Positions 19,952-34,945 of a stretch of 64,000 nucleotides of DNA are shown here, piece after piece; within the stretch, counting starts at the first letter, position 1; each line of letters opens with the position of its first letter. The position numbers and the translations under genes were made by a program. Under the pieces are notes generated by a model that was not told where the DNA came from, searched no databases, and saw only the letters and a program-made list of their open reading frames with translations. Origin of the DNA: a virus (taxonomy: Duplodnaviria; Caudoviricetes); IMG/VR virus record IMGVR_UViG_2974795854_000001, positions 8,980-72,979 of that record; one strand, given 5' to 3'.

Positions 19952-20665
19952 TTAATTTTCATATAATTTGATTAAGTTGCTTACTTGTATTGGGTAAAAT
20001 TTATTTCCTCTAGATGTTTCAAATCCGTTTTTATTAAGGTAATCTGCTATTTGCTTTAAAGTACTCTTGTTAGACTTCATTCTAGATGCCATAGCGTACG
20101 CTCTACGGTTGTTCTCGTTAGCAATGGCCTTTGCCTTTCTAATTACTTTAGAGCGCTCTCTGGCCATATCAGAGAGATTCTGAGGGTTGCCTAAAGAAGT
20201 GATTCGATCACCGGCTTTAGTAATATGGTACCCGTCAGATTCTATATTGGCCTTTATCTGACCTAAGGCGTCTTTTACCCTTCTCTGAGTTTTATCTTTT
20301 TCTTCCTTAGCAATTAAGAACTTGATGTTTTTAGAAAACTCGCTATCGTGAGGTGAATCGGCTTCTATAAAAGGTACACCCTTCTCCTCTAGCTTTGCTA
20401 TGGTCATAAACCCTGCTCTAGATAATCTATCTATGCGGTGAACCAATAATACCGCAGAGTGTTTCTTACAAAGCTCTAATGCCTTATCAAATCCTTCTCG
20501 AACTTGGGCCCCACCCGAGATTATCTCGCTAACCTCTTCTACTATAGTTCCGCCGTAAGACTTAACAAACGCCTCTACAGAACTCTTTTGAACTTCTAAC
20601 CCTATTCCATCTCTTTGGCTTTCTGTCGACGCCCTGTAGTATGCTACGTATTTCTTATTATCCAT
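19952..20665 (-). CDS. serine recombinase (resolvase/invertase family)
   Basis: Catalytic YYRASTESQ and RIDRLSR motifs, with a C-terminal HTH (TLKQIADYLN.NGFETSRG). ATG at 20665 is preferred over the track start at 20707. Confidence 0.9.
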   Translation of the reverse strand: MDNKKYVAYYRASTESQRDGIGLEVQKSSVEAFVKSYGGTIVEEVSEIISGGAQVREGFDKALELCKKHSAVLLVHRIDRLSRAGFMTIAKLEEKGVPFIEADSPHDSEFSKNIKFLIAKEEKDKTQRRVKDALGQIKANIESDGYHITKAGDRITSLGNPQNLSDMARERSKVIRKAKAIANENNRRAYAMASRMKSNKSTLKQIADYLNKNGFETSRGNKFYPIQVSNLIKLYEN

Positions 20666-20693
20666 CTCTATTAATTTTTGATTGTTGTTTTGA

Positions 20694-20924
20694 TTACTTA
20701 GTGGCACTCTCTACAGAAACTACTTGTGAGTAGTATCTAGTTACTTTTATTTCTTTTCCTTGTCTATCAGGATATCCTATGGTGGCCATCTTATTACCTA
20801 GTTTTAATATAGTACCTTCTTTAAGGAGGCTGTACCTCGGTACAACAAATACTACTCTATCTCCAACCTCTAATTCTACACTTATAAAATCTTTCATAAT
20901 ACAAATTGTTTTCGTTTTGCTCAT
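20694..20924 (-). CDS. hypothetical protein (SH3/KOW-like)
   Basis: 76 aa with a TATCTTTG element at 20927-20934, almost abutting the ATG. Confidence 0.6.
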   Translation of the reverse strand: MSKTKTICIMKDFISVELEVGDRVVFVVPRYSLLKEGTILKLGNKMATIGYPDRQGKEIKVTRYYSQVVSVESATK

Positions 20925-21675
20925 TACAAAGATAGTACATAAAGTCTGTTAAACCTAATTTATTTTCAATTATTTTTAATTTATTTTATAAGTCATTGAT
21001 TATTAACGTTTTACATAATTAAGTTATTTGGAGGGGTAAAAAAGTATAAAATATTTATTTGTATATTTGCATACACGCTTTATTTTTATTATATTTACAA
21101 CATATTACATACGAAGAGTTTCTAAGGGTTTGACTTACTCAAACTAAGTACCGAAGATAAAGAACCTAGCGAATAGGGAAGTAGTTAGTCGGGCTACATA
21201 TCGTTCTGGCCAAGGATAGGCGTGCTAAGATAGTTATTCGAGCGAAGGAACACTGAGGAGTGTTTGGAGTAAGAGAGGCAATTCCTCCGCCATTTATGGC
21301 TCCCATTATAACAGGAGGTTTATACTAAAGAGCGAAAGCTTTTAAACCAAATTAAGTTATATGTTTTCGTCTAAATTGTATCACTCTAACGGGTTTTACT
21401 CTTTAGCGAAGCTATATCCAGAGAGGATTACCTAAAGTATATTATAAGAGAATAAATATAGATATAATAGAATATAGATAACCTAGCCCCGAGATAAGAT
21501 ATGAGATATAAAGACTATAAAATAGAAAGTAAGAAGAAGAGTAAGTTGGATTCTAAAAAAGAAGATTCGACTGCTCGAGTTTATAAACGAAAAAATAGCA
21601 AGGTGAAGGATGCCCTATCTTTTAAAATTAGGGGCAAATCCAAATTAGCCTAGCACCAACCACCAGTTGAAAACA

Positions 21676-21708
21676 AGAAAGCCACCTTTAATTAGATGGC
21701 TTTTTTCA
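21676..21708. terminator. bidirectional intrinsic terminator at the end of tRNA operon C
   Basis: aagaaagcca-cctttaattaga-tggctttttt: hairpin with A-tract and U-tract on opposite sides. Confidence 0.8.
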
Positions 21709-21714
21709 TTTAAG

Positions 21715-21786
21715 AACTTCTAGAGGGATTCGAACCCCCAATCTACCCGTTCGTAGCGGAGCGCTTTTCCGTTAAGCTATAGAAGT
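21715..21786 (-). tRNA. trnR: tRNA-Arg(ACG), operon C
   Basis: Acceptor ACTTCTA/TAGAAGT, anticodon loop CT-ACG-AA, TTCGAAT T-loop. Confidence 0.92.
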
Positions 21787-21793
21787 GTGAAAG

Positions 21794-21876
21794 TGCATCC
21801 AGAGGGATTCGAACCCCCAATCCTTTCGGCGACAGGTTTTAAGCCTGTAGTGTATAGCCATTTCCACCATGAATGC
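21794..21876 (-). tRNA. trnL: tRNA-Leu(TAA), operon C
   Basis: ACAGG-CT-TAA-AA-CCTGT, long variable arm, A73. Confidence 0.92.
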
Positions 21877-21885
21877 ATTAGTAAG

Positions 21886-21968
21886 TACCGGAAGAGGGAT
21901 TCGAACCCTCAAAAGTCTAGGTTTCTAAAACCCAATGATCTACCATTCTCTTTTTTACTCACTCCGGT
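21886..21968 (-). tRNA. trnL: tRNA-Leu(TAG), atypical, operon C
   Basis: TGGGT-TT-TAG-AA-ACCTA, good acceptor stem and T-arm, expanded D region and only a 7-nt variable region. Confidence 0.8.
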
Positions 21969-22003
21969 ATAAAAGGGGCGTGACATTATGACACCCCCTG
22001 TGT

Positions 22004-22080
22004 TGGACAACCGTATGGGAATCGAACCCATGTAATCAGGTTCACAGCTTGACCGCCTTTCCAATTTGGCGCAACGGAGG
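22004..22080 (-). tRNA. trnH: tRNA-His(GTG) with mismatched acceptor stem and encoded CCA, operon C
   Basis: Loop CT-GTG-AA, D stem CGCC/GGCG, T-arm ATGGG/CCCAT, acceptor mismatches C2.U71 and U3.U70. Confidence 0.8.
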
Positions 22081-22091
22081 ACTCTTATAAG

Positions 22092-22163
22092 ATGGAGTAC
22101 AGGGGCTCGAACCCCGACGAACTGGCTCAAAACCAATCATGCTAACCATTACATCATACTCCA
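22092..22163 (-). tRNA. trnQ: tRNA-Gln(TTG), operon C
   Basis: TGGAGTA/TACTCCA acceptor, ATTGG-TT-TTG-AG-CCAGT. Confidence 0.92.
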
Positions 22164-22209
22164 ATGTCTAGTTTCTACTTTTTTGGGAGATACTAGTAAA
22201 CAACCTTCG

Positions 22210-22284
22210 TACTATCGACGAGACTCGAACTCGCATTGCGCACCTTGAAAGGGTGGGTTCCTACTCCATTTAGAAGACGATAGC
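22210..22284 (-). tRNA. trnE: tRNA-Glu(TTC), operon C
   Basis: GCTATCG/CGATAGT acceptor, loop CT-TTC-AA. Confidence 0.92.
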
Positions 22285-22293
22285 AAATCAAAG

Positions 22294-22365
22294 TCGAGTA
22301 GGCAGGGATCGAACCTGCATTCTCCGACGTCCAAGGTCGGCACGTGCCAATTTTGTCACTACTCG
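22294..22365 (-). tRNA. trnP: tRNA-Pro(TGG), first gene of operon C
   Basis: C1-G72, A73, CCGAC-CT-TGG-AC-GTCGG. Confidence 0.92.
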
Positions 22366-22367
22366 AA

Positions 22368-22406
22368 ATAAAAAAAGCCCCAATGGTTTGTACCAAAGGG
22401 GCTCTT
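22368..22406 (-). terminator. attenuator terminator of tRNA operon C
   Basis: AGCCCC-tt-TGGT-acaa-ACCA-tt-GGGGCT followed by a U-tract ending a few nt before tRNA-Pro. Confidence 0.85.
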
Positions 22407-22429
22407 AATAGGATATTGTGCGTTGAAAA

Positions 22430-22519
22430 CTATGATAGTTCATCAATCCCATGATAAGACACCCTCGATGGTAATCGAAGTTGTTCTAAGGGCTCTTGAT
22501 GTAATAGTCTTGCGTTCAT
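22430..22519 (-). CDS. leader peptide of tRNA operon C (MNARLLHQEPLEQLRLPSRVSYHGIDELS)
   Basis: Manual translation. Codons 5-17 are only Leu/His/Gln/Glu/Pro/Arg, the amino acids of the downstream tRNAs. Confidence 0.85.
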   Translation of the reverse strand: MNARLLHQEPLEQLRLPSRVSYHGIDELS

Positions 22520-22520
22520 A

Positions 22521-22559
22521 TTGTAAATATACAACTTTTTTTTGATATAAAAAAACTTA
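22521..22559 (-). promoter_or_regulatory. promoter repeat copy C (TATATTTA -7 element)
   Basis: Near-identical to 23761-23800 and 25359-25394, and matches the Bacteroidota TAnnTTTG-type -7 box. Confidence 0.8.
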
Positions 22560-22571
22560 TACTATTTTATT

Positions 22572-22865
22572 TTATGTTCTTGTTGGATTCTTCTTAACTC
22601 TCTTCTTTGCAGCAGCTAATTTCTTAGTATATGCACTCATACCTCCGGCCTTCTCTACGTCCTTCTTAAAGGCTGCAGATCTATTGGCGTCGTTACGACC
22701 TCTAGTTCCTCTAGCTTCTTCTTCTTTCTTAAGCTTGCCACTTGTCTTAACAGTGTACTTTTTAGCTTTAGTGTTTGCAACACCACTCTTATCAGATTTG
22801 ATCGTTACGTTTTTCTTAGGTGCAGTTTTCTTAGTTGGCACCGTCTTTCTTGTAGTTCTTCTCAT
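22572..22865 (-). CDS. small highly basic protein between tRNA operons B and C
   Basis: MRRTTRKTVPTKKTAPKK..., Lys/Arg-rich. ATG at 22865 is preferred over the track start at 22913, which overlaps promoter-like elements. Confidence 0.7.
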   Translation of the reverse strand: MRRTTRKTVPTKKTAPKKNVTIKSDKSGVANTKAKKYTVKTSGKLKKEEEARGTRGRNDANRSAAFKKDVEKAGGMSAYTKKLAAAKKRVKKNPTRT

Positions 22866-22916
22866 TGTTGTTTGTTTAACGTTAAGTAGTAAAGATACGA
22901 AAAATACAAACATAAG

Positions 22917-22988
22917 AATCGGAGACCGGAATTGAACCGGTATAGCACAGTTTTGCAGACAGGCCCCTTCTCCGTCAGGTTCTCCGAT
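22917..22988 (-). tRNA. trnC: tRNA-Cys(GCA), last gene of operon B
   Basis: ATCGGAG/CTCCGAT acceptor, U73, loop CT-GCA-AA. Confidence 0.85.
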
Positions 22989-22993
22989 ATAAG

Positions 22994-23066
22994 TGCGATA
23001 GGTAGGTTTCGATCCTACTCCTCTGGGGTTTCAAGCCAGTGCTTCTACCAAGTTAGCTTCTACCGC
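22994..23066 (-). tRNA. trnF: tRNA-Phe(GAA), operon B
   Basis: GCGGTAG/CTATCGC acceptor, loop TT-GAA-AC. Confidence 0.87.
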
Positions 23067-23146
23067 ATTAAAAAACAACAGCCAAGACCTTCTCTCGGAT
23101 TTTATGGCGGCTCCTTTACATTATAGGATGCTCTGTTGTTTTATCG

Positions 23147-23215
23147 CGCGCACCCAAAGAATCGAACTCTGTCCTACGGGGTTGGAATCCGTTTGGCCAC
23201 CATGGCCTGATGCGC
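23147..23215 (-). tRNA. trnW: tRNA-Trp(CCA) with short D-arm, operon B
   Basis: GCGCATC/GGTGCGC acceptor, G73, loop TT-CCA-AC. Confidence 0.87.
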
Positions 23216-23222
23216 ATTAAAG

Positions 23223-23294
23223 AGGCTAGGGAGAATTACGATATCTCGACCTGACGCTTAACAGGCGCCTGCTCTTCCTCTGAGCTACCTAGCC
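23223..23294 (-). tRNA. trnN: tRNA-Asn(GTT), operon B
   Basis: GGCTAGG/CCTAGCC acceptor, GGCGC-CT-GTT-AA-GCGTC, variant T-loop ATCGTAA. Confidence 0.9.
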
Positions 23295-23303
23295 GTGTGT
23301 TTG

Positions 23304-23388
23304 TAGAGAAGAAGGGATTCGAACCCTCGGAGGCGTTAACCCCACTACTTTAGCAAAGTAGCACCTTAAGCCACTCAGACACCTCTCT
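23304..23388 (-). tRNA. trnS: tRNA-Ser(GCT), operon B
   Basis: CTACT-TT-GCT-AA-AGTAG, long variable arm. Confidence 0.92.
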
Positions 23389-23393
23389 AAATG

Positions 23394-23483
23394 TGGAAGA
23401 AGTGGGGCTCGAACCCACACGGGCTTTTAAACCCCAACTGTTTTCAAGACAGCGACCCGTAGACCTACTTGGCTTACCCTTCC
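23394..23483 (-). tRNA. trnS: tRNA-Ser(TGA), operon B
   Basis: GCTGT-CT-TGA-AA-ACAGT, long variable arm. Confidence 0.92.
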
Positions 23484-23490
23484 ATTATTG

Positions 23491-23572
23491 TTGCACCGTG
23501 CGGAATCGAACCACTCCCCTCTCAAGAACTGTTTTACAGACAGCCTGCTAGAACCACTAGCTTTACGTTGCA
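23491..23572 (-). tRNA. trnY: tRNA-Tyr(GTA), first gene of operon B
   Basis: GCTGT-CT-GTA-AA-ACAGT, long variable arm, A73. Confidence 0.88.
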
Positions 23573-23577
23573 AGTTA

Positions 23578-23620
23578 TAAAAAACAAAAAACCCTCTTAG
23601 CTACGAAAGACCAAGAGGGT
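23578..23620 (-). terminator. attenuator terminator of tRNA operon B
   Basis: ACCCTCTT...AAGAGGGT 8-bp stem (extendable) followed by TTTTTGTTTTT, just before tRNA-Tyr. Confidence 0.85.
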
Positions 23621-23669
23621 AAAAATCAAAATTAATAATCAAAAATTAATAAAAGAAATGAATATATTT

Positions 23670-23759
23670 TTAAGACAAGTACAACCTCTCGACATTATAG
23701 CTACTAAAGCTACAATTCGAATACCAAGAGAAATTATTGTATGTCATGTTTGTTTTCAT
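23670..23759 (-). CDS. leader peptide of tRNA operon B (MKTNMTYNNFSWYSNCSFSSYNVERLYLS)
   Basis: Manual translation. Codons 7-22 are 16 consecutive Tyr/Asn/Phe/Ser/Trp/Cys codons, exactly the operon's tRNA set. Confidence 0.88.
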   Translation of the reverse strand: MKTNMTYNNFSWYSNCSFSSYNVERLYLS

Positions 23760-23760
23760 A

Positions 23761-23800
23761 TTGTAAATATACAACTTTTTTTTGATATAAAAAAACTTAC
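23761..23800 (-). promoter_or_regulatory. promoter repeat copy B (TATATTTA -7 element)
   Basis: 39-nt identity with copy C (ttgtaaatatacaactttttttgatataaaaaaactta-type block on the plus strand). Confidence 0.8.
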
Positions 23801-23821
23801 ATCATTTTATTTTAAAAATAG

Positions 23822-23891
23822 TTGGAATAGAGGGAATCGAACCCATCTCCACACGCATATAAGACGTGCTAACCTACCTAGGCTTACTCCA
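23822..23891 (-). tRNA. trnI: tRNA-Ile(TAT), rare UAU anticodon, reduced D-arm, last gene of operon A
   Basis: TGGAGTA/TATTCCA acceptor (nearly the same as tRNA-Ile GAT), A73, CACGT-CT-TAT-AT-GCGTG, T-stem with two mismatches. Confidence 0.8.
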
Positions 23892-24013
23892 ATAAAGATC
23901 TTGTGGTCACTATATCCACATCACACGCTGTTTTAAGGTTTATCTCTGTTACCAAAGAATGCAGGCATACGTGTTACCTAAAAGCCTATAAGTGTTTTTC
24001 ACTAAGATCCAAG

Positions 24014-24084
24014 AACCTCTACAGGGATTCGAACCCCGATCATAGCGGTAGAAGCGCCGTATTTTTCCATTAAACTATAGAGGC
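24014..24084 (-). tRNA. trnR: tRNA-Arg(TCT), operon A
   Basis: GCCTCTA/TAGAGGT acceptor, loop CT-TCT-AC. Confidence 0.9.
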
Positions 24085-24145
24085 AAAAAAGACCTACCCT
24101 TGGACACTTTGAGACGTTCTCCTAGAAGTGTGGTAGGTACTGTTG

Positions 24146-24219
24146 TACCAAATGACAGATTCGAACTATCGACCTTCTCCTTGTAAAAGAGCTGCTCTAA
24201 ACCACTGAGCTAATCTGGT
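24146..24219 (-). tRNA. trnV: tRNA-Val(TAC), operon A
   Basis: ACCAGAT/ATTTGGT acceptor, loop TT-TAC-AA. Confidence 0.9.
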
Positions 24220-24429
24220 ATATGGTAGGCATGTTACTACACCTACTTTTTTGTTTTTAACGTGGAGAAGCTTATTTCCATAACTCAAAACTCCATTACA
24301 ATACTTTTAACCTAATAAATAAAAAGGGGCTCTTGTTCACGATATCTAGTATTCGCTAAGCCCCCTTTTCAAAAAAACACTTAATCTAATGCGCTTCAAA
24401 ACTTCTCGAGAGGCGGATTAAGTCTGTTG

Positions 24430-24503
24430 AGCACTAATCAGGGATCGAACCCGAATTATCTTCGTTACAAATGAAGTACCATTTCCTATTCAGTCATTAG
24501 TGC
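24430..24503 (-). tRNA. trnT: tRNA-Thr(TGT), operon A
   Basis: GCACTAA/TTAGTGC acceptor, loop TT-TGT-AA. Confidence 0.88.
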
Positions 24504-24513
24504 ATAATTAAAG

Positions 24514-24590
24514 CGGTCTAAGAGGGATTCGAACCCTCGTTTTAGAGCAGTGACAGTGCAATTCGTGTTACCAAACACGCTTATTAGACC
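24514..24590 (-). tRNA. trnD: tRNA-Asp(GTC), operon A
   Basis: GGTCTAA/TTAGACC acceptor, G73, loop CT-GTC-AC, weak anticodon stem. Confidence 0.85.
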
Positions 24591-24665
24591 AGTTGGCAGA
24601 TGTCGATTAACTGCCGAGTGTCGTACGAACACCCTTTATCCCGAAGAGTGTAGAAACGACTTTTG

Positions 24666-24734
24666 TGGCGGGTATGGGAGTCGAACCCATCTATAAGGAC
24701 TTATGAGGCCCTCCGGTCACCACGACCACCCACA
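24666..24734 (-). tRNA. trnM: tRNA-Met(CAT) with short D-arm and unpaired 1:72, operon A
   Basis: AGGGC-CT-CAT-AA-GTCCT, U1.C72 mismatch, 69 nt. Met versus lysidine-Ile identity cannot be fixed by eye. Confidence 0.78.
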
Positions 24735-24744
24735 ATTTTAAAAG

Positions 24745-24817
24745 AGCGTAAGACGAGGTTCGAACTCGCTATCTCCTACTTGGAAGGCAGGCGCCATTCC
24801 ACTATGGCCTCTTACGC
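24745..24817 (-). tRNA. trnG: tRNA-Gly(TCC), operon A
   Basis: GCGTAAG/CTTACGC acceptor, U73, loop CT-TCC-AA. Confidence 0.92.
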
Positions 24818-24905
24818 AAATTCCTCTTTTTATAGAGTTGAGGTAAAAACATTCTCTTAGTCCAACTTTTTTCCTTTTTCTTTCTTTCGGTAGTCTTCCG
24901 CCTCG

Positions 24906-24978
24906 TTGGAATAGAAGGTTTCGAACCTACGACCTCTCCCGTATCAGGGGAGTGCTCTAACCGCTGAGCTATACTCCA
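24906..24978 (-). tRNA. trnI: tRNA-Ile(GAT), operon A
   Basis: Canonical cloverleaf, CTCCC-CT-GAT-AC-GGGAG. Confidence 0.94.
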
Positions 24979-25027
24979 ATATTACCTTATTCGCTTATAA
25001 TCCATTATATAAGCTAATTTACTTATG

Positions 25028-25100
25028 TGCCCCTGCTAGGAATCGAACCTAGCCCCACTGTTTAAAAGACAGTTGCCTACAACCTGTTTGCTACAAGGGC
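25028..25100 (-). tRNA. trnK: tRNA-Lys(TTT), operon A
   Basis: ACTGT-CT-TTT-AA-ACAGT, GCCCTTG/CAGGGGC acceptor. Confidence 0.92.
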
Positions 25101-25128
25101 AATTTGGTGTCAGTAAGGGATCTTATTG

Positions 25129-25203
25129 TGGAACTCATGGGTATCGAACCCATCTCACTCTGATTGCAAATCAAAGTCGCCTTGCCTTGGTTCATGCAGC
25201 CCC
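25129..25203 (-). tRNA. trnA: tRNA-Ala(TGC), first gene of operon A
   Basis: G3:U70 and A73 Ala identity elements, loop TT-TGC-AA. Confidence 0.87.
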
Positions 25204-25233
25204 AATAAAAAACCCTCCTTTTTAGGGGAGGGC
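25204..25233 (-). terminator. attenuator terminator of tRNA operon A
   Basis: GCCCTCC-cctaaaaa-GGAGGGT followed by a U-tract, abutting tRNA-Ala. Confidence 0.82.
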
Positions 25234-25261
25234 TGTAATAAATATCTTATATCTAAAGAAA

Positions 25262-25339
25262 TTATAGTACACGGCTCCTCCCCAAGAGTTTCACTCCCTT
25301 GGTTCTAATATCTGTCGCTATGTTCATAATTGTTTTCAT
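25262..25339 (-). CDS. leader peptide of tRNA operon A (MKTIMNIATDIRTKGVKLLGRSRVL)
   Basis: Manual translation. 16 of the first 17 codons are Met/Lys/Thr/Ile/Ala/Asp/Arg(AGA)/Gly/Val, the operon's tRNA set. Confidence 0.85.
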   Translation of the reverse strand: MKTIMNIATDIRTKGVKLLGRSRVL

Positions 25340-25358
25340 CGATCTTATTGCTTTGATA

Positions 25359-25394
25359 CAAATATACAACTTTTTTTGATATAAAAAAACTTAC
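25359..25394 (-). promoter_or_regulatory. promoter repeat copy A (TATATTTG -7 element)
   Basis: Same block as copies B and C, with a perfect Bacteroidota TAnnTTTG at 25359-25366. Confidence 0.82.
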
Positions 25395-25411
25395 TTGTAA
25401 ATAATTCTGTT

Positions 25412-25558
25412 TTAGATGTCTTTTCCGGTTTTTTCTTCAATCTTTCGCTCCAACTCGTCTGCAGCACTATTGAAATATGCCTGTAATTTAGGGTTGTTCT
25501 TCAAGATTAATGCGAAACCTGCCGCTCCGGCCAATACTCCTACTAAAAATGTAATCAT
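25412..25558 (-). CDS. small membrane protein (48 aa, MITFLVGVLAGAAGFALILK...)
   Basis: Manual translation. N-terminal TM helix plus charged tail, below the track's length cutoff. Confidence 0.6.
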   Translation of the reverse strand: MITFLVGVLAGAAGFALILKNNPKLQAYFNSAADELERKIEEKTGKDI

Positions 25559-25611
25559 AGTTTATAATGTTTATAATGTTAGATGCAAATATAGTAAAAG
25601 TATGCGAACTA

Positions 25612-25743
25612 TTATTCAATCCTTTCTTTATATTGTTCGACGGCCTGTCCTGTTTTCTTATTTATGTACTCTCTTAAGTACTTCCTTTGATCTTCTGATA
25701 GCTCAGACCAAAATTCCCCGAATGATCTCCATGTACGTGCCAT
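25612..25743 (-). CDS. small hypothetical protein (43 aa, MARTWRSFGEFWSEL...)
   Basis: Manual translation, phage-like codon usage, same strand as its neighbours. Confidence 0.5.
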   Translation of the reverse strand: MARTWRSFGEFWSELSEDQRKYLREYINKKTGQAVEQYKERIE

Positions 25744-25763
25744 ATTTTATAAAATTATCGTTA

Positions 25764-26057
25764 TTAATACACCTCTATTGAGTTTGTATAAGTTATTTCA
25801 AAGTCTTCTGGGGCGTTTAATGCAAATAACAGGCCATTTGCAAAAGCTTCTGCTGCTACATCACCTTTCTCGTGGTAGTAGTCACCGTAAGAAGATGCTA
25901 AGACGTCGTTTACATAAACTCGAGCTCCTACATAGTCTCCTCCGAGGATACTTTCTCTCACTTCTTCATCTCCTAAATCTTGGCCCTCATAATCGTAGAA
26001 CACTGTATCTATTCTAATAGTTTTTAATTCGATCACTCCTAGTAATTTATCTGACAT
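25764..26057 (-). CDS. hypothetical protein
   Basis: 97 aa acidic ORF, first gene of the leftward arm. Confidence 0.6.
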   Translation of the reverse strand: MSDKLLGVIELKTIRIDTVFYDYEGQDLGDEEVRESILGGDYVGARVYVNDVLASSYGDYYHEKGDVAAEAFANGLLFALNAPEDFEITYTNSIEVY

Positions 26058-26488
26058 AATAATCCTTGTTTAAATGAGCTATAAAGGTAGTAAAATCTTT
26101 CGAGGGGTGCAAGTAAATAATCCGGTAAAAAGTTTGTCACGTACTTTAGGGGCCATTTTATGCATGTTTTTGCACCAACTTTCGAAGTTCTCTTGCACTT
26201 TCTGTTTTAAGACATACTATACCCACGGGCCTCGCGCCGCTATGGTAAACCCGATTTTTTTAATGGGGTGGGGTTCGTATTTTTTCAAATTTGCGTGTAA
26301 CTTTTAGCTTTTCTAGGCTGTTAATTACTTGGTTTGCAGTTACTTACATTAAACTCTCTGACTTTCTCCGCTTCATTTTATACTGGTTAATCTGCTATAA
26401 ATAAAGTCTGTTTAATACCTGTTTAACATAGTTTATTAGTACAGGATATTTATTTCCCCCTTACTATTCTTTAAATAATTATTATTTT

Positions 26489-26552
26489 ACTGCCACCCTG
26501 TCATATAATACCTTCCACATACTGCCACCCTGTCATACCCTACCTTCCACAT
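26489..26552. repeat. 32-bp tandem direct repeat (actgccaccctgtcataNNNtaccttccacat x2)
   Basis: Two units differing only at three central positions, inside a C/A-skewed ORF-free tract. Confidence 0.85.
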
Positions 26553-26783
26553 AACAACACCTGACAATCTGACACCATAACATGCCATGCTGTCATATGC
26601 TTACCAGTTAACCAACCTCAACACAATATCACTATCACAATAGCAGCCTATCACATAATAGACCTTACCAACCTACCCCCCAAACCACCAACAAAACCCC
26701 CACAAAACCCCTTTATTTTTTATAATGTATCCCGTACGCGCGCGCAAATACCTATAGTAGCCCACAAAAATCTCTACTTTACC

Positions 26784-26870
26784 GTTTAACGATTTTTTAG
26801 GTAGTTCATCGGATTTTTAGTTTAATATCTCTAAGTCCGCCGTATATTTGTAGGGCAGTTAACAAGTAAC
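26784..26870 (+). promoter_or_regulatory. early promoter 1 with conserved upstream element
   Basis: TATATTTG at 26843-26850 and upstream gtttaacgattttttaggtagttcatcg. Confidence 0.7.
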
Positions 26871-27021
26871 ACACTGCAAACGTTCTTTTAACATATTGAT
26901 AAGCAATTAACGAAAATACCTATTATAGGGTGTATATGTGTATAGCTGCCAATAAAAGTAAGTAAGTAGTATCTTAATGTATAAATCTACTAAAAGCTTG
27001 GTTTAGGGTCTACAAAATACA

Positions 27022-27108
27022 GTTTAACCGATTTTTAGGTAGTTCGTCGAATAAATTGCTTCAAATCAATATTGTTTCTATACATTTGTAGCGTAGTTAG
27101 TAAGTAAC
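27022..27108 (+). promoter_or_regulatory. early promoter 2 with conserved upstream element
   Basis: TACATTTG at 27081-27088 and upstream gtttaaccgatttttaggtagttcgtcg at the same spacing as promoter 1. Confidence 0.7.
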
Positions 27109-27109
27109 T

Positions 27110-27715
27110 AATTATAACATAAGTTCTTTAATTTAGTGTAGTTTATAACCCCTTGGAAGTGTGGCAGCCTTAAAACTGTCAAAATCTAGCAAATTAGCTA
27201 GGAAGAACCAAGATACTTGATTTTTTAATAACGGTGAAATACCGTGTAAGTTTAAAACAGGACGCAAGGGTAATTTGTATAAAGTGGGCAAAGCCCTAAA
27301 ATTCAAACAATAAGCACTATATTAATTATAAAACCGAAAAGGCAGTTCTTCGGTATATAAGAAACTGTCAGGAGGGTAACTTAGAATGTTACCAGTGGAA
27401 GCCACCGAAAAATACTTGGCACTCCTATACCGGCACGATTAGAGTGCTTATAAAGTAATAAAAACACTTTGAAATTGATAATTTTAGCAATTTCGTGTTG
27501 CACTACGATAAAACCGTGATAAGTTTTATATGGTGTTTTACTAGCCAATAGCAAGGGCAATAATGTAAACATCATTTTGCAATATTAAAACGATTTAAAC
27601 CAAGTAAAATTTGACAAAATAGAAGTATAAACAATAAATTAAAATTACAACTTGCTGCACAGACGTGGAGAACATTCTGTGCAGTACCTAAGCGTAGACA
27701 CGCAAAATAATCAAA
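27110..27715 (+). ncRNA. candidate large structured ncRNA or 5' leader
   Basis: About 600 nt with no plus-strand ORF of 60 aa or more, dense in inverted repeats, directly after promoter 2. Confidence 0.4.
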
Positions 27716-27743
27716 TAAAATAATAATCTTAAAATTAAAAGTT

Positions 27744-28229
27744 ATGGCAAATGTATCTAGTTACCAAAAAAATGTAAATGATGTAAACAAAGCACTTAAA
27801 GCAGAAGGTAAAACTTTGGGAGGGTGTGTAAAAATGTTACTGATATTTAAGAATGAAATAAAGTTAAGCGAGCCCGCAATCGAATTATTGACCTTCATTA
27901 GAGACGATTCCGATGCATTCAAAAAATTTAAGAAAACCGTTCGTACTTCAAAGTACAAAGGTAAGGACTTAGGCACTTATTCAGCTTACTACGTATTGCA
28001 GACCCTTCACAAAACTTTGAAGGTGGCAAAGGATATGACTACAGAGCCAATAGAGGCTAAAAAAGAGGTGGCGAAGCCTGCAACAGAAGTAAGAACTCCT
28101 GAACAAATAAAAGCGGCGAAAGACAGAGCTAAAAAAGCGGCTGCAACAAGGGCAGCTAATAAGGCTAAAAAAGAAGCGGCTAAAAAAGCAGAAGCTAAAA
28201 AAGAAGTATTAGAGCCTGTAATGGCATAA
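27744..28229 (+). CDS. first early protein with Ala/Lys-rich histone-like C-terminus
   Basis: 161 aa with an AKKAAATRAANKAKKEAAKK tail, followed by a terminator. Confidence 0.65.
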   Translation: MANVSSYQKNVNDVNKALKAEGKTLGGCVKMLLIFKNEIKLSEPAIELLTFIRDDSDAFKKFKKTVRTSKYKGKDLGTYSAYYVLQTLHKTLKVAKDMTTEPIEAKKEVAKPATEVRTPEQIKAAKDRAKKAAATRAANKAKKEAAKKAEAKKEVLEPVMA

Positions 28230-28270
28230 TTAAGGTATGCTGTTTACGATTAAGCAGTATTTTTTCATTT

Positions 28271-28308
28271 TGCCCGTGGTAATCCTTGACAGTTGCCACG
28301 GGTTTTTT
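28271..28308 (+). terminator. intrinsic terminator
   Basis: cccgtgg-(loop)-ccacggg-tttttt. Confidence 0.75.
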
Positions 28309-28312
28309 ATAT

Positions 28313-28374
28313 GGTAATTTTTGGTAACACCTTGAGTCGGCTCTTGGTGGGTGGTTCGATTCCACTAATTGCCC
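28313..28374 (+). ncRNA. small tRNA-like RNA without a canonical anticodon loop
   Basis: 7-bp acceptor GGTAATT/AATTGCC, T-arm GGTGG-TTCGATT-CCACT, middle hairpin CACC..GAG-tcgg-CTC..GGTG. Confidence 0.55.
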
Positions 28375-28533
28375 CTAATTTTAAAACAGTAAGATATGGA
28401 ACTTGCAAAAAAAGTATTCGTAAATGTATTAGTGGTTATTATAGTAATAACTGCATTAAGTTTATTGGTCGCTATCTTATCAGGAGCAGTAAACACATCA
28501 AATCTTTAATAAACCCCCCAAAATAAATAAGTT

Positions 28534-28788
28534 ATGAAAAGAATTAGCTACGAGAAATTAATGTCTCTAAACCCTACACTATTATCAGAAGTTATAAATA
28601 GAGAAGGACAAACTATATCTTTGTATGAACACCCTCTTTACGGTGGAGACCATACCATTATAGCAGCGTATCACCCTGAAAAGATAGCCGTAAATACCAA
28701 CTTTTGGGATACAGAGGACTTAGAAGGAGATGACTATTGCTTAGTTTATGCATTCGGTGAGTTGCATGAGGCATGGGAAATGGTATAA
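28534..28788 (+). CDS. hypothetical protein
   Basis: 84 aa ORF with an AT-rich Bacteroidota-type initiation region. Confidence 0.65.
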   Translation: MKRISYEKLMSLNPTLLSEVINREGQTISLYEHPLYGGDHTIIAAYHPEKIAVNTNFWDTEDLEGDDYCLVYAFGELHEAWEMV

Positions 28789-28822
28789 AAAAACAGGTAT
28801 CCACTATCAAAAACAGGACGAA

Positions 28823-29242
28823 ATGAACCAACAAGAATTAAGAGAGAGAAAACTACAGATACTAGACGAAACTGTAAAGTATTACTCCGAGGACTTAAGT
28901 AGAAGGGCGCTCGACGAAAACTTCATGTGTATGTACAAGACTCCCGAGGGTAAGATGTGCGCTGTAGGTAGATGTATGAGAGATGACGCACCATTTAAAG
29001 ACCTTAATACACAAGGTGAATTACTCTCTTTAGAGATAATCCGTGATGTAGAATTTAAAAAGCAAGATAAGAAGTTAGACACCCTCTTAAAGGATAAGTA
29101 CAAGGGTGTAAACATAGAGTTTTGGATGACCCTGCAAAGTTTGCATGACCAAAGCCTTAATTGGGAAAGTGGAGGACTTTCGGAAATGGGAGAGGTAGAG
29201 TTAAATAGAATTAAATCAGATATAGAAAAAGGAGAGTTATGA
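28823..29242 (+). CDS. Cys-containing paralog family member 1 (YYSEDLSRR / MCAVGRCM)
   Basis: Start re-set to ATG 28823. Motifs are shared with 30074..30562 and 30579..31004. Confidence 0.7.
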   Translation: MNQQELRERKLQILDETVKYYSEDLSRRALDENFMCMYKTPEGKMCAVGRCMRDDAPFKDLNTQGELLSLEIIRDVEFKKQDKKLDTLLKDKYKGVNIEFWMTLQSLHDQSLNWESGGLSEMGEVELNRIKSDIEKGEL

Positions 29243-29532
29243 GAAGAGTTAAAAGGTTATCGTTAATATTAGTACTGACGTTAGTATTTGTGACAATAGT
29301 TGCATCTGCACAAGAAAGTACAGAGCCTACCTATGTGGTACAAGGTGACAAAATAGTAAAAGTAGGAGGTGGTAAATCTGCATCCGAAGGAACAAAGACC
29401 AAATACACCATGGATGTAAAAGGTGTTGAGTACCCTGTGTATAAAAGTACTAGGGGTAGCTACTATATTCTTAGGACTAGTAAGAAGTCTGGAAAAGAGT
29501 ATAAGCAATATATAAAAATAACTGGCCTATAA
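29239..29532 (+). CDS. small secreted protein
   Basis: Signal-peptide-like N-terminus ending ASA-Q. Confidence 0.6.
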   Translation: MRRVKRLSLILVLTLVFVTIVASAQESTEPTYVVQGDKIVKVGGGKSASEGTKTKYTMDVKGVEYPVYKSTRGSYYILRTSKKSGKEYKQYIKITGL

Positions 29533-29569
29533 AAGAAGACCTATTCACTATCCAAAACCTAGGGAAATT

Positions 29570-29974
29570 ATGATTAAGAGACAACTGATAGAAATGGCAA
29601 TATACTCTATATCTTCCGTAGCCTTTGCTATAGAAGAGCTGGAATCAAAATTGCAGGACTGGAAGAGACGTAATATTGCAGAAGGAAACGATGAACCTAG
29701 GCTGTACCCAAGGCGTTGCGACGTAACAGGAGAGGGTATGGATAAGGGTTACCTATTCCATGACACAATGTACATAAAGTATCTATCTGACGCCAAAAAA
29801 ATGGCTAAAGAGAATGGGTACGACTCTCTTCAAGATAGCTATGACAGCGGTTTCCATTATTGGACAGAGTGGGAGCAAGAGGCCTACGACGGTGGGAGTG
29901 CATATGACATTATGGGTAAGTTGTACCTCTTCAAAGTTAAACGTAGAGGTGAAGGTGATTGGGTAAAACAATAA
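29570..29974 (+). CDS. hypothetical protein
   Basis: 134 aa ORF. Confidence 0.65.
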   Translation: MIKRQLIEMAIYSISSVAFAIEELESKLQDWKRRNIAEGNDEPRLYPRRCDVTGEGMDKGYLFHDTMYIKYLSDAKKMAKENGYDSLQDSYDSGFHYWTEWEQEAYDGGSAYDIMGKLYLFKVKRRGEGDWVKQ

Positions 29975-29981
29975 GTACAAA

Positions 29982-30053
29982 GCTCTTTTCGTCTAGCGGT
30001 AAGGACATTCGGTTTTCATCCGAAAAACATAGGTTCGAATCCTATAGAGAGTA
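29982..30053 (+). tRNA. trnE: tRNA-Glu(TTC), early-region copy 1
   Basis: TTCGG-TT-TTC-AT-CCGAA, canonical cloverleaf. Confidence 0.92.
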
Positions 30054-30073
30054 CTAATATTAAAATTTAAGAG

Positions 30074-30562
30074 ATGTTAAAAGTAAAAGCAGAAATCGGA
30101 AGGTCTAAAGAAGACATGATAAAATTGTTGAACGAGACTGCCCAATACTACTCCGAGGATTTGAGTAGAAGGGGTACTAAATCAGGCCCTATAAGTGGGT
30201 GCGTGTACAAGTCCGATAAAGGAAGTATGTGCGCTGTAGGTAGATGTATGGTAGATGAAGCACCTTTTGAAGAGTTTAACTTACAAGGGAGCATCGGATC
30301 ACTAGCTATCCTCAACGGCGTTAACCCCCGAACTAAAGAAGGTGCTGAAAGGGTAGACGCTTTTCTTAAAGATGAGTATAAGGGTTACCCTGTATCATTT
30401 TGGGAATGCCTGCAAGAGTTCCACGACGGAGAACAATATTGGGTAGTAGGTGCAGACGGCGATGAAAATGGAAGTATGGAGAACGTATTAGAAAGAAGGT
30501 TGCTTAAAATAAGAGCTATAAAGAATAATATACTCTTTGGTAAATATAAAATACAAAGTTAA
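30074..30562 (+). CDS. Cys-containing paralog family member 2
   Basis: YYSEDLSRR...CVY...MCAVGRCM. Confidence 0.7.
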   Translation: MLKVKAEIGRSKEDMIKLLNETAQYYSEDLSRRGTKSGPISGCVYKSDKGSMCAVGRCMVDEAPFEEFNLQGSIGSLAILNGVNPRTKEGAERVDAFLKDEYKGYPVSFWECLQEFHDGEQYWVVGADGDENGSMENVLERRLLKIRAIKNNILFGKYKIQS

Positions 30563-30578
30563 AAACACTATCAAAACT

Positions 30579-31004
30579 ATGACACGAACGAAAGAAGAGG
30601 CCCTAGCCTTATTAAACGAGACTATTGAATACTACTCCGAGGATTTGAGTAGAAGAGGTATAGAAAGTAGAGGGTCTGATTTATGCAAATACCGTGTAAA
30701 AGGCGGCGGAATGTGCGCTGTAGGTAGATGTATGAAAGATGGATTGGACTATGAGGATCTAAACAAGAGAGGCGGCCTTTACTCATTGGCAGGCGTACTT
30801 ATATCAAAGGTAGATAAGTCTAAACCTCTACCCGAATTAGATAAATACCTTAAAGACGAGCATAAAGGATACCCAGTAATTGTTTGGGAGGTACTTCAAA
30901 CAATACATGACGATTCAGGGAATTGGAAGGGTACAGAGGCCTCTAAAGTAGTATTAGAGAAGGAGCATAAAGCAGCTATTAAAAAAATAAACAAAGTATA
31001 TTAA
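30579..31004 (+). CDS. Cys-containing paralog family member 3
   Basis: YYSEDLSRR...CKY...MCAVGRCM. Start re-set to ATG 30579. Confidence 0.7.
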   Translation: MTRTKEEALALLNETIEYYSEDLSRRGIESRGSDLCKYRVKGGGMCAVGRCMKDGLDYEDLNKRGGLYSLAGVLISKVDKSKPLPELDKYLKDEHKGYPVIVWEVLQTIHDDSGNWKGTEASKVVLEKEHKAAIKKINKVY

Positions 31005-31148
31005 ACAATACAATGGGGGTATTAGGGGAGACACGGGTAGATAATAGTTCAAAGAACCATATGACCAAATAGAACACCTTTAATATTTTACATACAAACA
31101 AAAATCAATTAATAATCAAAGCTGTAGAGCATCGTACTAAAATTAATT

Positions 31149-31439
31149 ATGGCAAACAAGACACAATCAGAAAAGTACATCGATTTAATTTCTCAATCTT
31201 CTAAAGATGTAGAGAAAGAACAATTACAATTTAGAGCGCAAGAAGCATCTCTTCAAGCAGACTCTTCAATCTTAGAGACTAAGAAAGCAATTGCAACGGC
31301 AAAGAGAGAGCTTACTGAATTAAAGAGAGCAATTCCTTACAGCTTCGACAAAGAAATCTCGAAGACAATAGAGGTAAAGAACCTTGAAGAAGGTCTTGCT
31401 ATAGCTGAGAGTATTCAAAAGAGTAGATTCGGCTCGTAA
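31149..31439 (+). CDS. small coiled-coil protein
   Basis: 96 aa, similar to 32104..32376 (LQADxxxTK...). Confidence 0.65.
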   Translation: MANKTQSEKYIDLISQSSKDVEKEQLQFRAQEASLQADSSILETKKAIATAKRELTELKRAIPYSFDKEISKTIEVKNLEEGLAIAESIQKSRFGS

Positions 31440-31469
31440 ACACTATCAAAAACCCTAAAAACTTTATTT

Positions 31470-32285
31470 ATGAAGACAGTAAAACGTGGACAAAGAATAA
31501 CCCTCAAAAATAGTCAAGGGGTTGAGTTGGAAATAACTGTTTTTGATAATCACCTCTCTAGTGTAAAGGGGGGTAATGAACAGGTATTCAAAATGTTTGA
31601 TATGTACACTGACGAGGAAAGGATAGACTTTTGTACAAAGGCCTACGGTTATCCGGCAGAATTTGGAATGTGTCCGGAGTGTAGAATAGGCGACTACGAA
31701 GCATTGACAAGGTTGGTGGAAAGCTTCAAGGATTTAGAGAGTAAGATAATCATAAAATCTAAAGAAGGTGTAGTTATAAAAGGGTACTTAAAGAGAGATA
31801 CTATAGAGTTTGAATCAGGCGAAGAAGTTTTTAAGTACAGTGTTTCAAGCACCCATTTATCATCTGCAGGGGGTTCAAACGAAGCAATATTCTCTGCATT
31901 AAAAGAGAGAGGACTTTTACCGGAAGGTAAGATGGAGTTTTGTAGAGAGGCCTACGGCTATTACCCAGAGAGAGGGTCGTTTCCATGTTATAGGGAAAAC
32001 GATATGTTGGCAGCCTCTAGTGTTATCAAAAAAATACAAACAAGATTAGAAAAAGTTAGAGAAACAATGCCCAACGAAGGGCAAATTAAATCAGATAAAA
32101 AAGATGAATTACAAGAGCAGATTACAGAAGACGGAAGGACAGACAGGGGCAGACCAATTGGCGCACGACGTGGAACAGGCAGAGTTGCAAGCCAAGGCAG
32201 ACTTACTGGCAACAAAATTGCAGTTAAGCAAAGAAAGGCAAAAGTTGGAGAACTTAAGGTCAAGCAGGAGCCTATCTCTATCTAA
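31470..32285 (+). CDS. hypothetical protein with a tandemly duplicated domain
   Basis: Two copies of HLSSxxGxNExxF...FCxxAYGY...PxxR. The C-terminus overlaps the next gene in another frame. Confidence 0.65.
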   Translation: MKTVKRGQRITLKNSQGVELEITVFDNHLSSVKGGNEQVFKMFDMYTDEERIDFCTKAYGYPAEFGMCPECRIGDYEALTRLVESFKDLESKIIIKSKEGVVIKGYLKRDTIEFESGEEVFKYSVSSTHLSSAGGSNEAIFSALKERGLLPEGKMEFCREAYGYYPERGSFPCYRENDMLAASSVIKKIQTRLEKVRETMPNEGQIKSDKKDELQEQITEDGRTDRGRPIGARRGTGRVASQGRLTGNKIAVKQRKAKVGELKVKQEPISI

Positions 32286-32376
32286 AATCGTAGAGCAAAC
32301 CATGGTAGTATCAGACTATGAAAGAGGCTACGAAATAGCCGAGAAAGAAGTTAAAGAATTATTCGGAGATTCGTAG
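32104..32376 (+). CDS. small coiled-coil protein overlapping the upstream gene
   Basis: Similar to the stand-alone gene 31149..31439, which supports this frame being real. Confidence 0.6.
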   Translation: MNYKSRLQKTEGQTGADQLAHDVEQAELQAKADLLATKLQLSKERQKLENLRSSRSLSLSKIVEQTMVVSDYERGYEIAEKEVKELFGDS

Positions 32377-32434
32377 TAAACACTATCAAATACATATACA
32401 ATAAAAGCTAGTAGCGACGTTTACTAGCTTTTCT

Positions 32435-32506
32435 GCTCTTTTCGTCTAGCGGTAAGGACATTCGGTTTTCATCCGAAAAACATAGGTTCGAATCCTATAG
32501 AGAGTA
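32435..32506 (+). tRNA. trnE: tRNA-Glu(TTC), early-region copy 2
   Basis: Sequence identical to 29982..30053. Confidence 0.92.
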
Positions 32507-32526
32507 CTAATTAATACAAACTAGTC

Positions 32527-33255
32527 ATGGGAATAATAAGACTAAACACTTTATATACCCCTAGAGTAATAGGGAGTTCTGTTCCGATTGGTTCAGTAGT
32601 AGATATAAAAAAGGGCGTTAAGGAGAACGACAATATTACTGAGGAGATGTTCAATCAAGTCCTTAAAGAAGTAGAGGAGTGGACTAAAAAAGAATCCGAA
32701 AAAGTAAAGTTTAGCGAAGACAAAGGAACAAGGTTTAGCGAAGCCGAAGAAACACTTAGACACGAAGCCTTGTCGATCGTATCTAGCCACATAGATTTAA
32801 ACAAAGTGCTTAATTTAAGTAGTGTGGTGAAGGCTATAGAAAAGTTTTTAAACGGAGGTACAAGACAAAATTATGTACAAATAGAGATTGACGGTAGTTC
32901 ATGTAGAGACATAGTAATGTTAAAAGGGAGTTCATGTATCGATTTAATATACAATGATTTGATGGAATTTGATGCAGAGACTATTGGATTGATTGACGAA
33001 GAAGACATACTTACTGCGGCTCACCTTAACGGAGACCTTACATACGAATGGTTTTCAGAGATGTTCGATAACGGAGAAAGCCATTTTGAAATAGGATTAA
33101 ATCTATTAAACACAAACGGTCTAGTAAGAGACCTTGCAAAGGCAATAATAATGAATCACGGTCAAAAGTCTGCGATAGAGAGTATATCATTCGCTTCGGA
33201 GGATGTAGAACACAACATAATTGGCACAGAAGATATTTTCTCTTGCCTACAATAA
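32527..33255 (+). CDS. hypothetical acidic protein
   Basis: 242 aa ORF. Confidence 0.65.
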   Translation: MGIIRLNTLYTPRVIGSSVPIGSVVDIKKGVKENDNITEEMFNQVLKEVEEWTKKESEKVKFSEDKGTRFSEAEETLRHEALSIVSSHIDLNKVLNLSSVVKAIEKFLNGGTRQNYVQIEIDGSSCRDIVMLKGSSCIDLIYNDLMEFDAETIGLIDEEDILTAAHLNGDLTYEWFSEMFDNGESHFEIGLNLLNTNGLVRDLAKAIIMNHGQKSAIESISFASEDVEHNIIGTEDIFSCLQ

Positions 33256-33281
33256 TTAATATAATAAATACAAATAAAGTT

Positions 33282-33425
33282 ATGGCAATGGATTTAGATT
33301 ACGTATTCGCAATGGAAGCTATAGAAAAACTAGAGCAAAAGTTAGGCAACATTCCACACGGAGAGAGGGAACAAATAGCGGACGACATTAATAAGATGAC
33401 CGACGCAATACTATCAAAATATTAG
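33282..33425 (+). CDS. small hypothetical protein
   Basis: Start re-set to ATG 33282 (MAMDLDYVFAM...). Confidence 0.5.
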   Translation: MAMDLDYVFAMEAIEKLEQKLGNIPHGEREQIADDINKMTDAILSKY

Positions 33426-33428
33426 GCT

Positions 33429-33677
33429 ATGAAAAATAGAAAGGTTATTAAATGGATTGTAGACTTCTTAATAGTCTGTGCTGTAGTATCTCCGCTAGCT
33501 ATGTACCTCTTCTTGGATGAAGACTACTTAAATAGCAGCCCTGCATTATCTGTTATAGGGGGATTGGGGATGTTAACCTCTATTGTAGCGTCGGTATTCC
33601 TCTTATTTGTAGGAGCTTCAATACTGATTGCACTTGTAGTAGGATTGTATAGACTCTTATTTGAAGAGAGAGATTAA
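33429..33677 (+). CDS. small membrane protein
   Basis: Two hydrophobic segments. Confidence 0.6.
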   Translation: MKNRKVIKWIVDFLIVCAVVSPLAMYLFLDEDYLNSSPALSVIGGLGMLTSIVASVFLLFVGASILIALVVGLYRLLFEERD

Positions 33678-34329: not shown

Positions 34330-34352
34330 CTAATAATCATAAAACAATAAAG

Positions 34353-34838: not shown

Positions 34839-34945
34839 TGAAGGCAAGCAAAGAAGACCGAAAGGTAGTGGCAGTAGTAACAATAATTAATATACTAGTG
34901 GTAGCAGTAATGTTCTACATAGTATCAAACCTTTAAAACAAAGAT

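Follow-up and report, generated by a model that had tools for sequence, protein, structure and literature searches.

Why would a phage place a terminator, and ahead of it a short reading frame that reads like an inventory of the genes behind it, directly upstream of a block of transfer RNA (tRNA) genes? We address this question for unit A, a locus in a 64,000-nucleotide (nt) stretch of IMG/VR virus record IMGVR_UViG_2974795854_000001 (positions 8,980 to 72,979 of that record), hereafter the window. The window is about 96.5% identical to the Cellulophaga phages phi38:1 and phi40:1, and the phage measures 72 kilobases (kb). A first-pass annotation, made from the letters alone, had proposed that unit A is an attenuator whose leader samples the tRNAs of its own operon. 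Our analysis supports this proposal: all the structural elements that it named are present, and the comparative tests agree with it. From sequence comparison and fold models, we consider it probable (roughly 0.75) that unit A is a ribosome-mediated, leader-peptide transcription attenuator controlling the phage tRNA block.

Layout of unit A and its tRNA block

Unit A consists of five parts, namely a promoter box, an open reading frame (ORF), a pairing segment, a terminator and a tRNA-like gene. Its features and the remainder of the tRNA block are given below; the hairpin called 1:2 is seen in minimum free energy (MFE) folds.

25394 to 25128, minus strand: unit A
25394-25359, minus strand: promoter box, made of a 24-nt repeat (25394-25371) and a TAnnTTTG-type -7 box (25366-25359)
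25339>25262, minus strand: leader ORF A, with ATG at 25339, TAA at 25264-25262 and 25 sense codons
25336-25289, minus strand: sensor codons 2-17 of leader ORF A
25302-25282, minus strand: hairpin 1:2, CCAAGGG (25302-25296) with CTCTTGG (25288-25282) and a 7-nt loop
25283-25274, minus strand: region 2, the antiterminator 5' strand, GGGGAGGAGC, in codons 19-22 and ending 10 nt before the stop codon
between the leader A TAA and the terminator hairpin, minus strand: AT-rich spacer of 28 nt
25233-25225, minus strand: region 3, GCCCTCCCC, overlapping the terminator 5' arm
25233..25207, minus strand: intrinsic terminator, with arms at 25233-25227 and 25218-25212 and six U to 25207
25203-25128, minus strand: tRNA-Ala(UGC)-like gene, directly downstream of the terminator, whose D region is aberrant
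23821..25100, minus strand: remainder of tRNA block A, with Lys(UUU), Ile(GAU), Gly(UCC), Met(CAU), Asp(GUC), Thr(UGU), Val(UAC), Arg(UCU) and Ile(UAU)

The first 17 codons of leader ORF A read Met Lys Thr Ile Met Asn Ile Ala Thr Asp Ile Arg Thr Lys Gly Val Lys, and 16 of them specify amino acids that have a tRNA gene in block A, the exception being Asn. This count, reported in the first-pass annotation, proved correct on recounting, as did its coordinates on the minus strand and the codon-anticodon matches ATA/UAU, AGA/UCU and GCG/UGC. In the long ORFs of the window, 53.5% of residues are one of the nine block A amino acids, which gives a probability of 3.9e-4 for at least 16 matches in 17; moreover, among 257 short ORFs in the window, leader A alone attains an in-set score this high.

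The same annotation counted 10 tRNAs in the operon, a figure that stands in part. Eight are firm, since ARAGORN calls every gene from Lys(UUU) to Arg(UCU) in the list above at its default setting. Ile(UAU) (23891-23821) is weak, with an ARAGORN call at relaxed thresholds only and an Rfam score of 23.0 bits against a gathering score of 29 bits. The tenth, the Ala-like gene, is atypical. It has a UGC anticodon loop, an anticodon arm, a G3:U70 acceptor pair and a good T arm. Comparison with the copy in a related phage sequence, L014 (L014:9880-9960, minus strand), revealed compensatory change at two pairs, one in the acceptor and one in the T stem, with G3:U70 kept, and the aberrant D region is conserved between the two. 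In addition, relatives carry ARAGORN-called tRNA-Ala genes at the position of the Ala-like gene.

The short ORF lies promoter-proximal and upstream of block A. The predicted transcription start of unit A is near 25354, so that leader A would begin about 15 nt downstream, behind a 5' untranslated region of that length. Phage phi38:1 encodes no RNA polymerase itself and relies on the host enzyme (PMC5335546). Mapping of transcription start sites in Flavobacterium has placed a sigma-A -7 box of the form TAnnTTTG at -12 to -5 and found no Shine-Dalgarno sequence, and it gave clues of leader-peptide attenuation, which is suspected for amino-acid operons in that genus (PMC9723704).

A BLAST search of leader A against phage records returned matches in phi38:1 and phi40:1 only, and in both records the leader is contained in a "hypothetical protein" annotated from an upstream TTG. 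The gene adjoining leader A upstream (25412-25558, minus strand) encodes a 48-amino-acid (aa) single-pass membrane protein (phrog_11666, function unknown). It lies directly upstream of leader A in the window and also in L014, Maribacter phage Panino, L159, L161 and L208. In the last four, no promoter box separates the phrog_11666 gene from the leader, and leader A would thus be the second cistron of its mRNA there.

Leader content and tRNA content across units and phages

The layout of promoter repeat, short ORF, hairpin with U-tract and tRNA within a few nt is found three times in the window and recurs in each of the 17 initially examined units, and the 24-nt box of unit A is one copy of a three-copy direct repeat common to units A, B and C. 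The two sister units are as follows.

22916..23800, minus strand: sister unit B, with promoter repeat, leader ORF (23759>23670), terminator (23620>23591) and a tRNA block of Tyr, Ser(UGA), Ser(GCU), Asn, Trp, Phe and Cys
21678..22574, minus strand: sister unit C, with promoter repeat, leader ORF (22519>22430), terminator (about 22404>22377) and a tRNA block of Pro, Glu, Gln, His, Leu(UAG)-like, Leu(UAA) and Arg(ACG)
21703>21678, minus strand: end-of-block terminator of unit C

Leader B contains an unbroken run of 16 codons that all specify Tyr, Asn, Phe, Ser, Trp or Cys, the amino acids of its own block (P = 8.7e-10), and leader C contains an unbroken run of 14 that all specify Arg, Leu, His, Gln, Glu or Pro, again those of its own block (P = 1.5e-7). 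Each leader in the window scores high solely against its own tRNA block, and the three blocks jointly cover all 20 amino acids.

The three unit types recur in unrelated phages, including a Callevirus podovirus, a Lightbulbvirus myovirus, Maribacter phage Panino and uncultured contigs of 20-290 kb; the Cellulophaga phage phi4:1, a 146-kb myovirus of another genus, has all three. The uncultured viral contigs were found by a promoter-plus-ATG pattern and by an A-type pattern. A loose scan with the latter returned mostly noise, yet it yielded three new A-type units (L159, L161 and L208). Homologous leaders with the block A amino-acid set are present in phi38:1, L014, Panino, L159, L161, L208 and phi4:1, and in more distant phages the design is kept while the peptide sequence is altered.

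More importantly, leader content covaries with tRNA content. Across 19 units from about a dozen phage lineages, every block amino acid occurs in leader residues 2-16 (107/107). When tRNA sets were permuted among the leaders, the summed score was 67 +/- 14 (maximum 132), compared with 182 observed, and none of 50000 permutations reached the observed value. The signal is specific to the reading frame, with a summed score of 183 in the frame of the leader ORF and 35 and 31 in the other two. It extends to the choice of Arg codon: AGA is used where the block has Arg(UCU), and CGN where it has Arg(ACG).

Where the grouping of tRNAs differs among phages, the composition of the leader follows. In L023, one leader (L023:7430-7504) has a core of Thr, Phe, Gln, Arg, Pro, Glu, His and Cys ahead of a Glu-Pro-Cys-Phe-Thr-Arg-Gln-His block, and a second (L023:6090-6140) has a Tyr/Ser/Leu core ahead of a Leu-Leu-Ser-Tyr block. 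The leaders at L121:8908-8982 and L119:3225-3317 (both minus strand) match their own Pro/Thr/Cys/Phe/Trp/Gln/His(/Arg) blocks, and in L048 and L052 Glu is missing from the block and from the leader core alike. Among the seven A-type leaders, 100 of 105 core codons fall in set A, and purine-first codons from outside the set number 2 of 102 (P = 1.9e-7, for leaders that are homologous to one another). Between the A cores of the window and L014, five of eight codon changes are synonymous, and the other three remain in or enter set A.

Most leaders begin Met-Lys(-Thr) whatever their amino-acid set, an opening that may reflect selection for efficient initiation. In leaders B and C and in most relatives, the ATG lies 4 nt past the -7 box; given the Flavobacterium spacing, these leaders are therefore predicted to be leaderless mRNAs. 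Common as it is, the design is not universal: tRNA arrays with no leader ORF occur as the first array of L023 and in L011, L069 and L210.

We also made a number of observations on the blocks themselves. The blocks of the window (21714-25203, minus strand) are roughly sorted by first codon base: block A holds the purine-first families except Asn, Ser(AGY) and Glu, block B mostly U-first families together with Asn and Ser(AGY), and block C mostly C-first families together with Glu and Leu(UUR). The grouping differs in L023, L119 and L121. Block A has three hairpins between tRNA-Thr and tRNA-Val (24428-24220, minus strand), two of them followed by a U-run; in L014 the Thr-Val gap spans only some 90 nt. 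The tRNA between His and Leu(UAA) in block C (21885-21968, minus strand) is called Gln(UUG) by ARAGORN at relaxed settings; by eye, its anticodon loop is UAG and its D region contains an insertion, and ARAGORN calls Leu(UAG) at this place in Panino and L014. Between blocks B and C lies the gene of a 97-aa, very basic, Lys-rich protein (22572-22865, minus strand) with no PHROG match, whose homologue in phi38:1 is annotated as a 'structural protein'. The L023:6090-6140 leader (plus strand) ends in TAG, and its block includes a tRNA of the amber-suppressor type with a CUA anticodon; reading through this TAG would take the ribosome in frame into the terminator 5' arm and on to a TAA in the loop. 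Outside the three blocks, two identical plus-strand tRNA-Glu(UUC) genes (29982-30054 and 32435-32507) are present, for which no leader or terminator was found, and a phage transfer-messenger RNA (tmRNA) gene with a long non-canonical tag lies at 33971-34330 (plus strand).

Predicted antiterminator pairing and a model of the proposed switch

The terminator hairpin of unit A has a free energy of -11.9 kcal/mol in our own search, and an independent scan places the terminator at 25234>25211. It begins 28 nt past the leader stop, and the Ala-like gene follows 4 nt beyond the U-tract. A canonical terminator at 22-49 nt past the leader stop was present in all 17 units first examined.

The first-pass annotation further held that a segment three codons before the stop pairs with the terminator 5' arm through a helix with one bulge, and each part of this description was borne out. 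GGGGAGGAGC and GCCCTCCCC form 7 base pairs (bp), one bulged A and 2 bp. The slightly extended duplex of regions 2 and 3 has an energy of -19.6 kcal/mol (RNAduplex), lower than the hairpin's -11.9 kcal/mol, and none of 300 shuffles of the 42-nt zone equalled it. Placement of region 2 close to the stop codon is conserved among A-type units. The A-type alignment holds too little helix variation for a covariation count, and a permutation across unit types was therefore used. The last 42 nt of each ORF pair with their own terminator 5' arm at a mean of -13.1 kcal/mol versus -9.4 +/- 0.6 kcal/mol with the arms of others, a difference matched in none of 20000 permutations. In L119 (10 bp, perfect), L052, L048, L014 unit B and phi4:1 unit A, a change in the terminator arm is accompanied by a change in the pairing segment.

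We modeled the effect of a ribosome by masking the RNA from 15 nt on the upstream side of the A-site codon to 11 nt on its downstream side and computing the ensemble probability of the terminator helix. The values for unit A were as follows.

no ribosome: P(terminator) 0.91
A site at codons 3-15: P(terminator) at most 0.15
A site at codons 10-14: P(terminator) 0.00
A site at codon 16 to the stop: P(terminator) 0.98

In this model, a ribosome from codon 16 to the stop restores the terminator, which agrees with the earlier claim that a terminating ribosome would mask region 2. Unit A of Panino behaves like that of the window, and unit A of L014 does so with a narrower window of codon positions. 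We also took a kinetic view by folding the RNA with the terminator 3' arm not yet transcribed. Here the 5' arm of unit A is fully paired with the ribosome at codons 1-15 and is freed with the ribosome at codons 17-21 or at the stop, so that unit A is predicted to switch at codons 16-17. Unit B likewise switches at codons 16-17 in the kinetic view, and unit C switches partly.

Hairpin 1:2 shares only 2 nt with region 2. Its sequence is conserved in all A-type leaders apart from one C-G to U-G change, which amounts to no real covariation; the folds make it a candidate anti-antiterminator or pause hairpin.

Taken together, the sequence features and fold models suggest a control mechanism with leader translation, hairpin termination and stall-driven read-through as its putative steps. 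Host RNA polymerase would start at the Bacteroidota-type promoter of unit A, and a ribosome would translate the 25-codon leader, whose first 15-17 codons would call at least once for each downstream tRNA species. If an aminoacyl-tRNA is scarce, the ribosome would stall within codons 3-15, leaving region 2 free to pair with the emerging terminator 5' arm; the terminator would then be blocked and polymerase would enter the tRNA genes. If decoding is fast, the ribosome would move on to the stretch from codon 16 to the stop and cover region 2, upon which the terminator would form and transcription would end at about 25207. Such a negative feedback loop would sustain the capacity to decode about ten codon families, and units B and C would act likewise on the other tRNA blocks. 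On this model, the phage probably makes a tRNA block only when the leader codons are decoded slowly. The trigger could be depletion of tRNA through host shut-off, heavy late translation or a tRNA-cleaving defence.

Weighing the alternatives, and what attenuation would mean

Several results weigh against attenuation of the tRNA block. At the level of the target, the Ala-like gene was not called by ARAGORN at usable thresholds or by Rfam when a stretch of only 111 nt was supplied (E<=10); it is unrecognised by tRNA models, yet its arms are present with compensatory changes, and we therefore file it as tRNA-like. The hairpins at 24428-24220 might split block A into two transcripts or serve processing. 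The published transcriptome study of phi38:1 contains nothing on phage tRNAs, these ORFs, promoters or terminators. At the level of structure, the whole-leader fold is no more stable than shuffled sequences (z = -1.15); because the MFE of the whole leader is like that of shuffles, we regard it as unsuited as a test for a switch. In C-type units, more than 20 nt separate region 2 from the stop, which puts it outside the reach of a stop-codon ribosome. Antiterminator complementarity is weak in window units B and C, in L014 unit C and in L121, and units B and C do not flip in the equilibrium mask model; the structural argument is therefore strongest for unit A. These last two results would fit a different mechanism, in which the codon-matched leader is translated and acts through the stability or RNase processing of the leader-tRNA precursor, or through tmRNA and RNase, with the hairpin serving only as a constitutive partial terminator or processing signal. 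The tRNAs need excision from a precursor in any case, and the phage encodes its own tmRNA. However, such a mechanism does not account for the covariation of region 2 with the terminator 5' arm across units, the conserved position of region 2 near the stop in A-type units or the clean switch given by the mask model of unit A, and we consider it unlikely.

The two fold models disagree on unit A without a ribosome: termination is the outcome in the equilibrium view and read-through in the kinetic view, where the 5' arm is fully paired with region 2. The kinetic result, together with the predicted leaderless state of leaders B and C and most relatives, would suit a general translation-capacity switch, in which the antiterminator forms first, read-through is the default and any ribosome that finishes the leader turns the unit off; the codon match would then serve only to make the leader decodable by the phage's own tRNAs. 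Decodability alone, however, would require neither that all block tRNAs be sampled, as they are in 107 of 107 cases, nor that the amino acids of other blocks be avoided, and the equilibrium model of the ribosome-free state speaks for termination. We judge this explanation somewhat less likely again than control at the precursor level. A T-box-like device, in which triplets of the leader RNA bind tRNA anticodons directly and translation plays no part, would draw on the presence of triplets complementary to the downstream anticodons. Yet these triplets are contiguous, lie in one frame bounded by start and stop, and lose their signal in the other frames; most leaders open with Met-Lys(-Thr) whatever their set; a T-box carries a single specifier; and a permissive Rfam scan of 20000-36000 (E<=1) found no T-box or other family on the leaders. 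Such a device is very improbable. As for a purine-rich spacer that happens to hold an ORF, all sensor codons of leader A are purine-first, and under a null of purine-first codons one out-of-set codon in 16 is unremarkable for unit A alone (P = 0.17). By itself, then, the codon match of unit A is only moderately beyond chance, and its significance rests on units B and C and on the relatives. Units B and C differ in composition and each fits its own block, and the cross-phage covariation, including the scarcity of out-of-set purine-first codons in the seven A-type leaders, makes chance barely credible as an explanation.

Attenuation by a translated leader is thus the reading that we carry forward, and it has close parallels among known systems. 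Single amino acids are sensed by trpL, hisL, leuL and pheL, and multivalent leaders are familiar from enterobacteria, where thrL senses Thr and Ile, and ilvL of ilvGMEDA senses Ile, Leu and Val. The units described here resemble thrL and ilvL in having a promoter-proximal short ORF with regulatory codons, a single leader that senses several amino acids, an intrinsic terminator ahead of the regulated genes, an antiterminator 5' strand that a ribosome near the stop can reach and, in unit A, a possible 1:2 hairpin. They differ in regulating tRNA genes rather than biosynthetic enzymes, so that the product would feed back on the quantity sensed, and in sampling 6-10 tRNA species one to a few times each, whereas thrL and ilvL contain runs of one to three amino acids. 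They are also phage-encoded and lie in a Bacteroidota context, where the promoter is of the TAnnTTTG type, a Shine-Dalgarno sequence is lacking and the sister leaders are predicted to be leaderless. Leader-peptide attenuators in amino-acid operons have been the subject of modelling (PMC1183508).

The pairing of attenuation with the translation apparatus has precedents as well. The pheM attenuator of pheST places translation-apparatus genes under the control of tRNA charging. The T-box riboswitch binds one uncharged tRNA directly and does not need a ribosome (PMC2879506). In both systems, as in the units here, transcription attenuation answers to tRNA status and the controlled genes belong to the decoding machinery; unlike the units here, which precede tRNA genes, both regulate synthetase genes. 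In mycobacteria, leaderless polycysteine short ORFs are reported to act as cysteine-responsive attenuators (bioRxiv 10.1101/834739). They too are leaderless short ORFs whose codon content ties a downstream operon to decoding speed, but they sense a single amino acid, control cellular metabolic operons and belong to another phylum. Our searches of the full-text literature returned no description of leader peptides or attenuators ahead of phage tRNA genes. The class of mechanism is a textbook one; what differs here is the tRNA-gene target, the wide sampling and the Bacteroidota phage.

If the attenuator reading is true, leader-peptide attenuation would extend to RNA genes and to Bacteroidota phages with leaderless messages, and one peptide would sense up to ten tRNA species. 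What phages gain from tRNA genes is an old question, and the usual explanations are compensation for codon usage and the replacement of tRNAs that host shut-off or a tRNA-cleaving defence has removed. We tentatively propose, at slightly less than even odds, that these phage tRNA blocks are on-demand replacement sets under 'checklist' leaders with one or a few codons for each tRNA of the block, a design present in unrelated phages of Flavobacteriia. Loss of any single host tRNA, whether to an anticodon nuclease, another tRNA-targeting defence, host shut-off or the demand of late infection, would switch on the whole block, which would go off again once decoding recovers. The near-identity of the window to the cultured phage phi38:1, for which the host, infection protocols and time courses, and RNA-seq are published, makes experiments feasible. 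If the attenuator reading holds, the phage would treat tRNA supply as a regulated quantity, which would favour the idea of replacement and make it testable.

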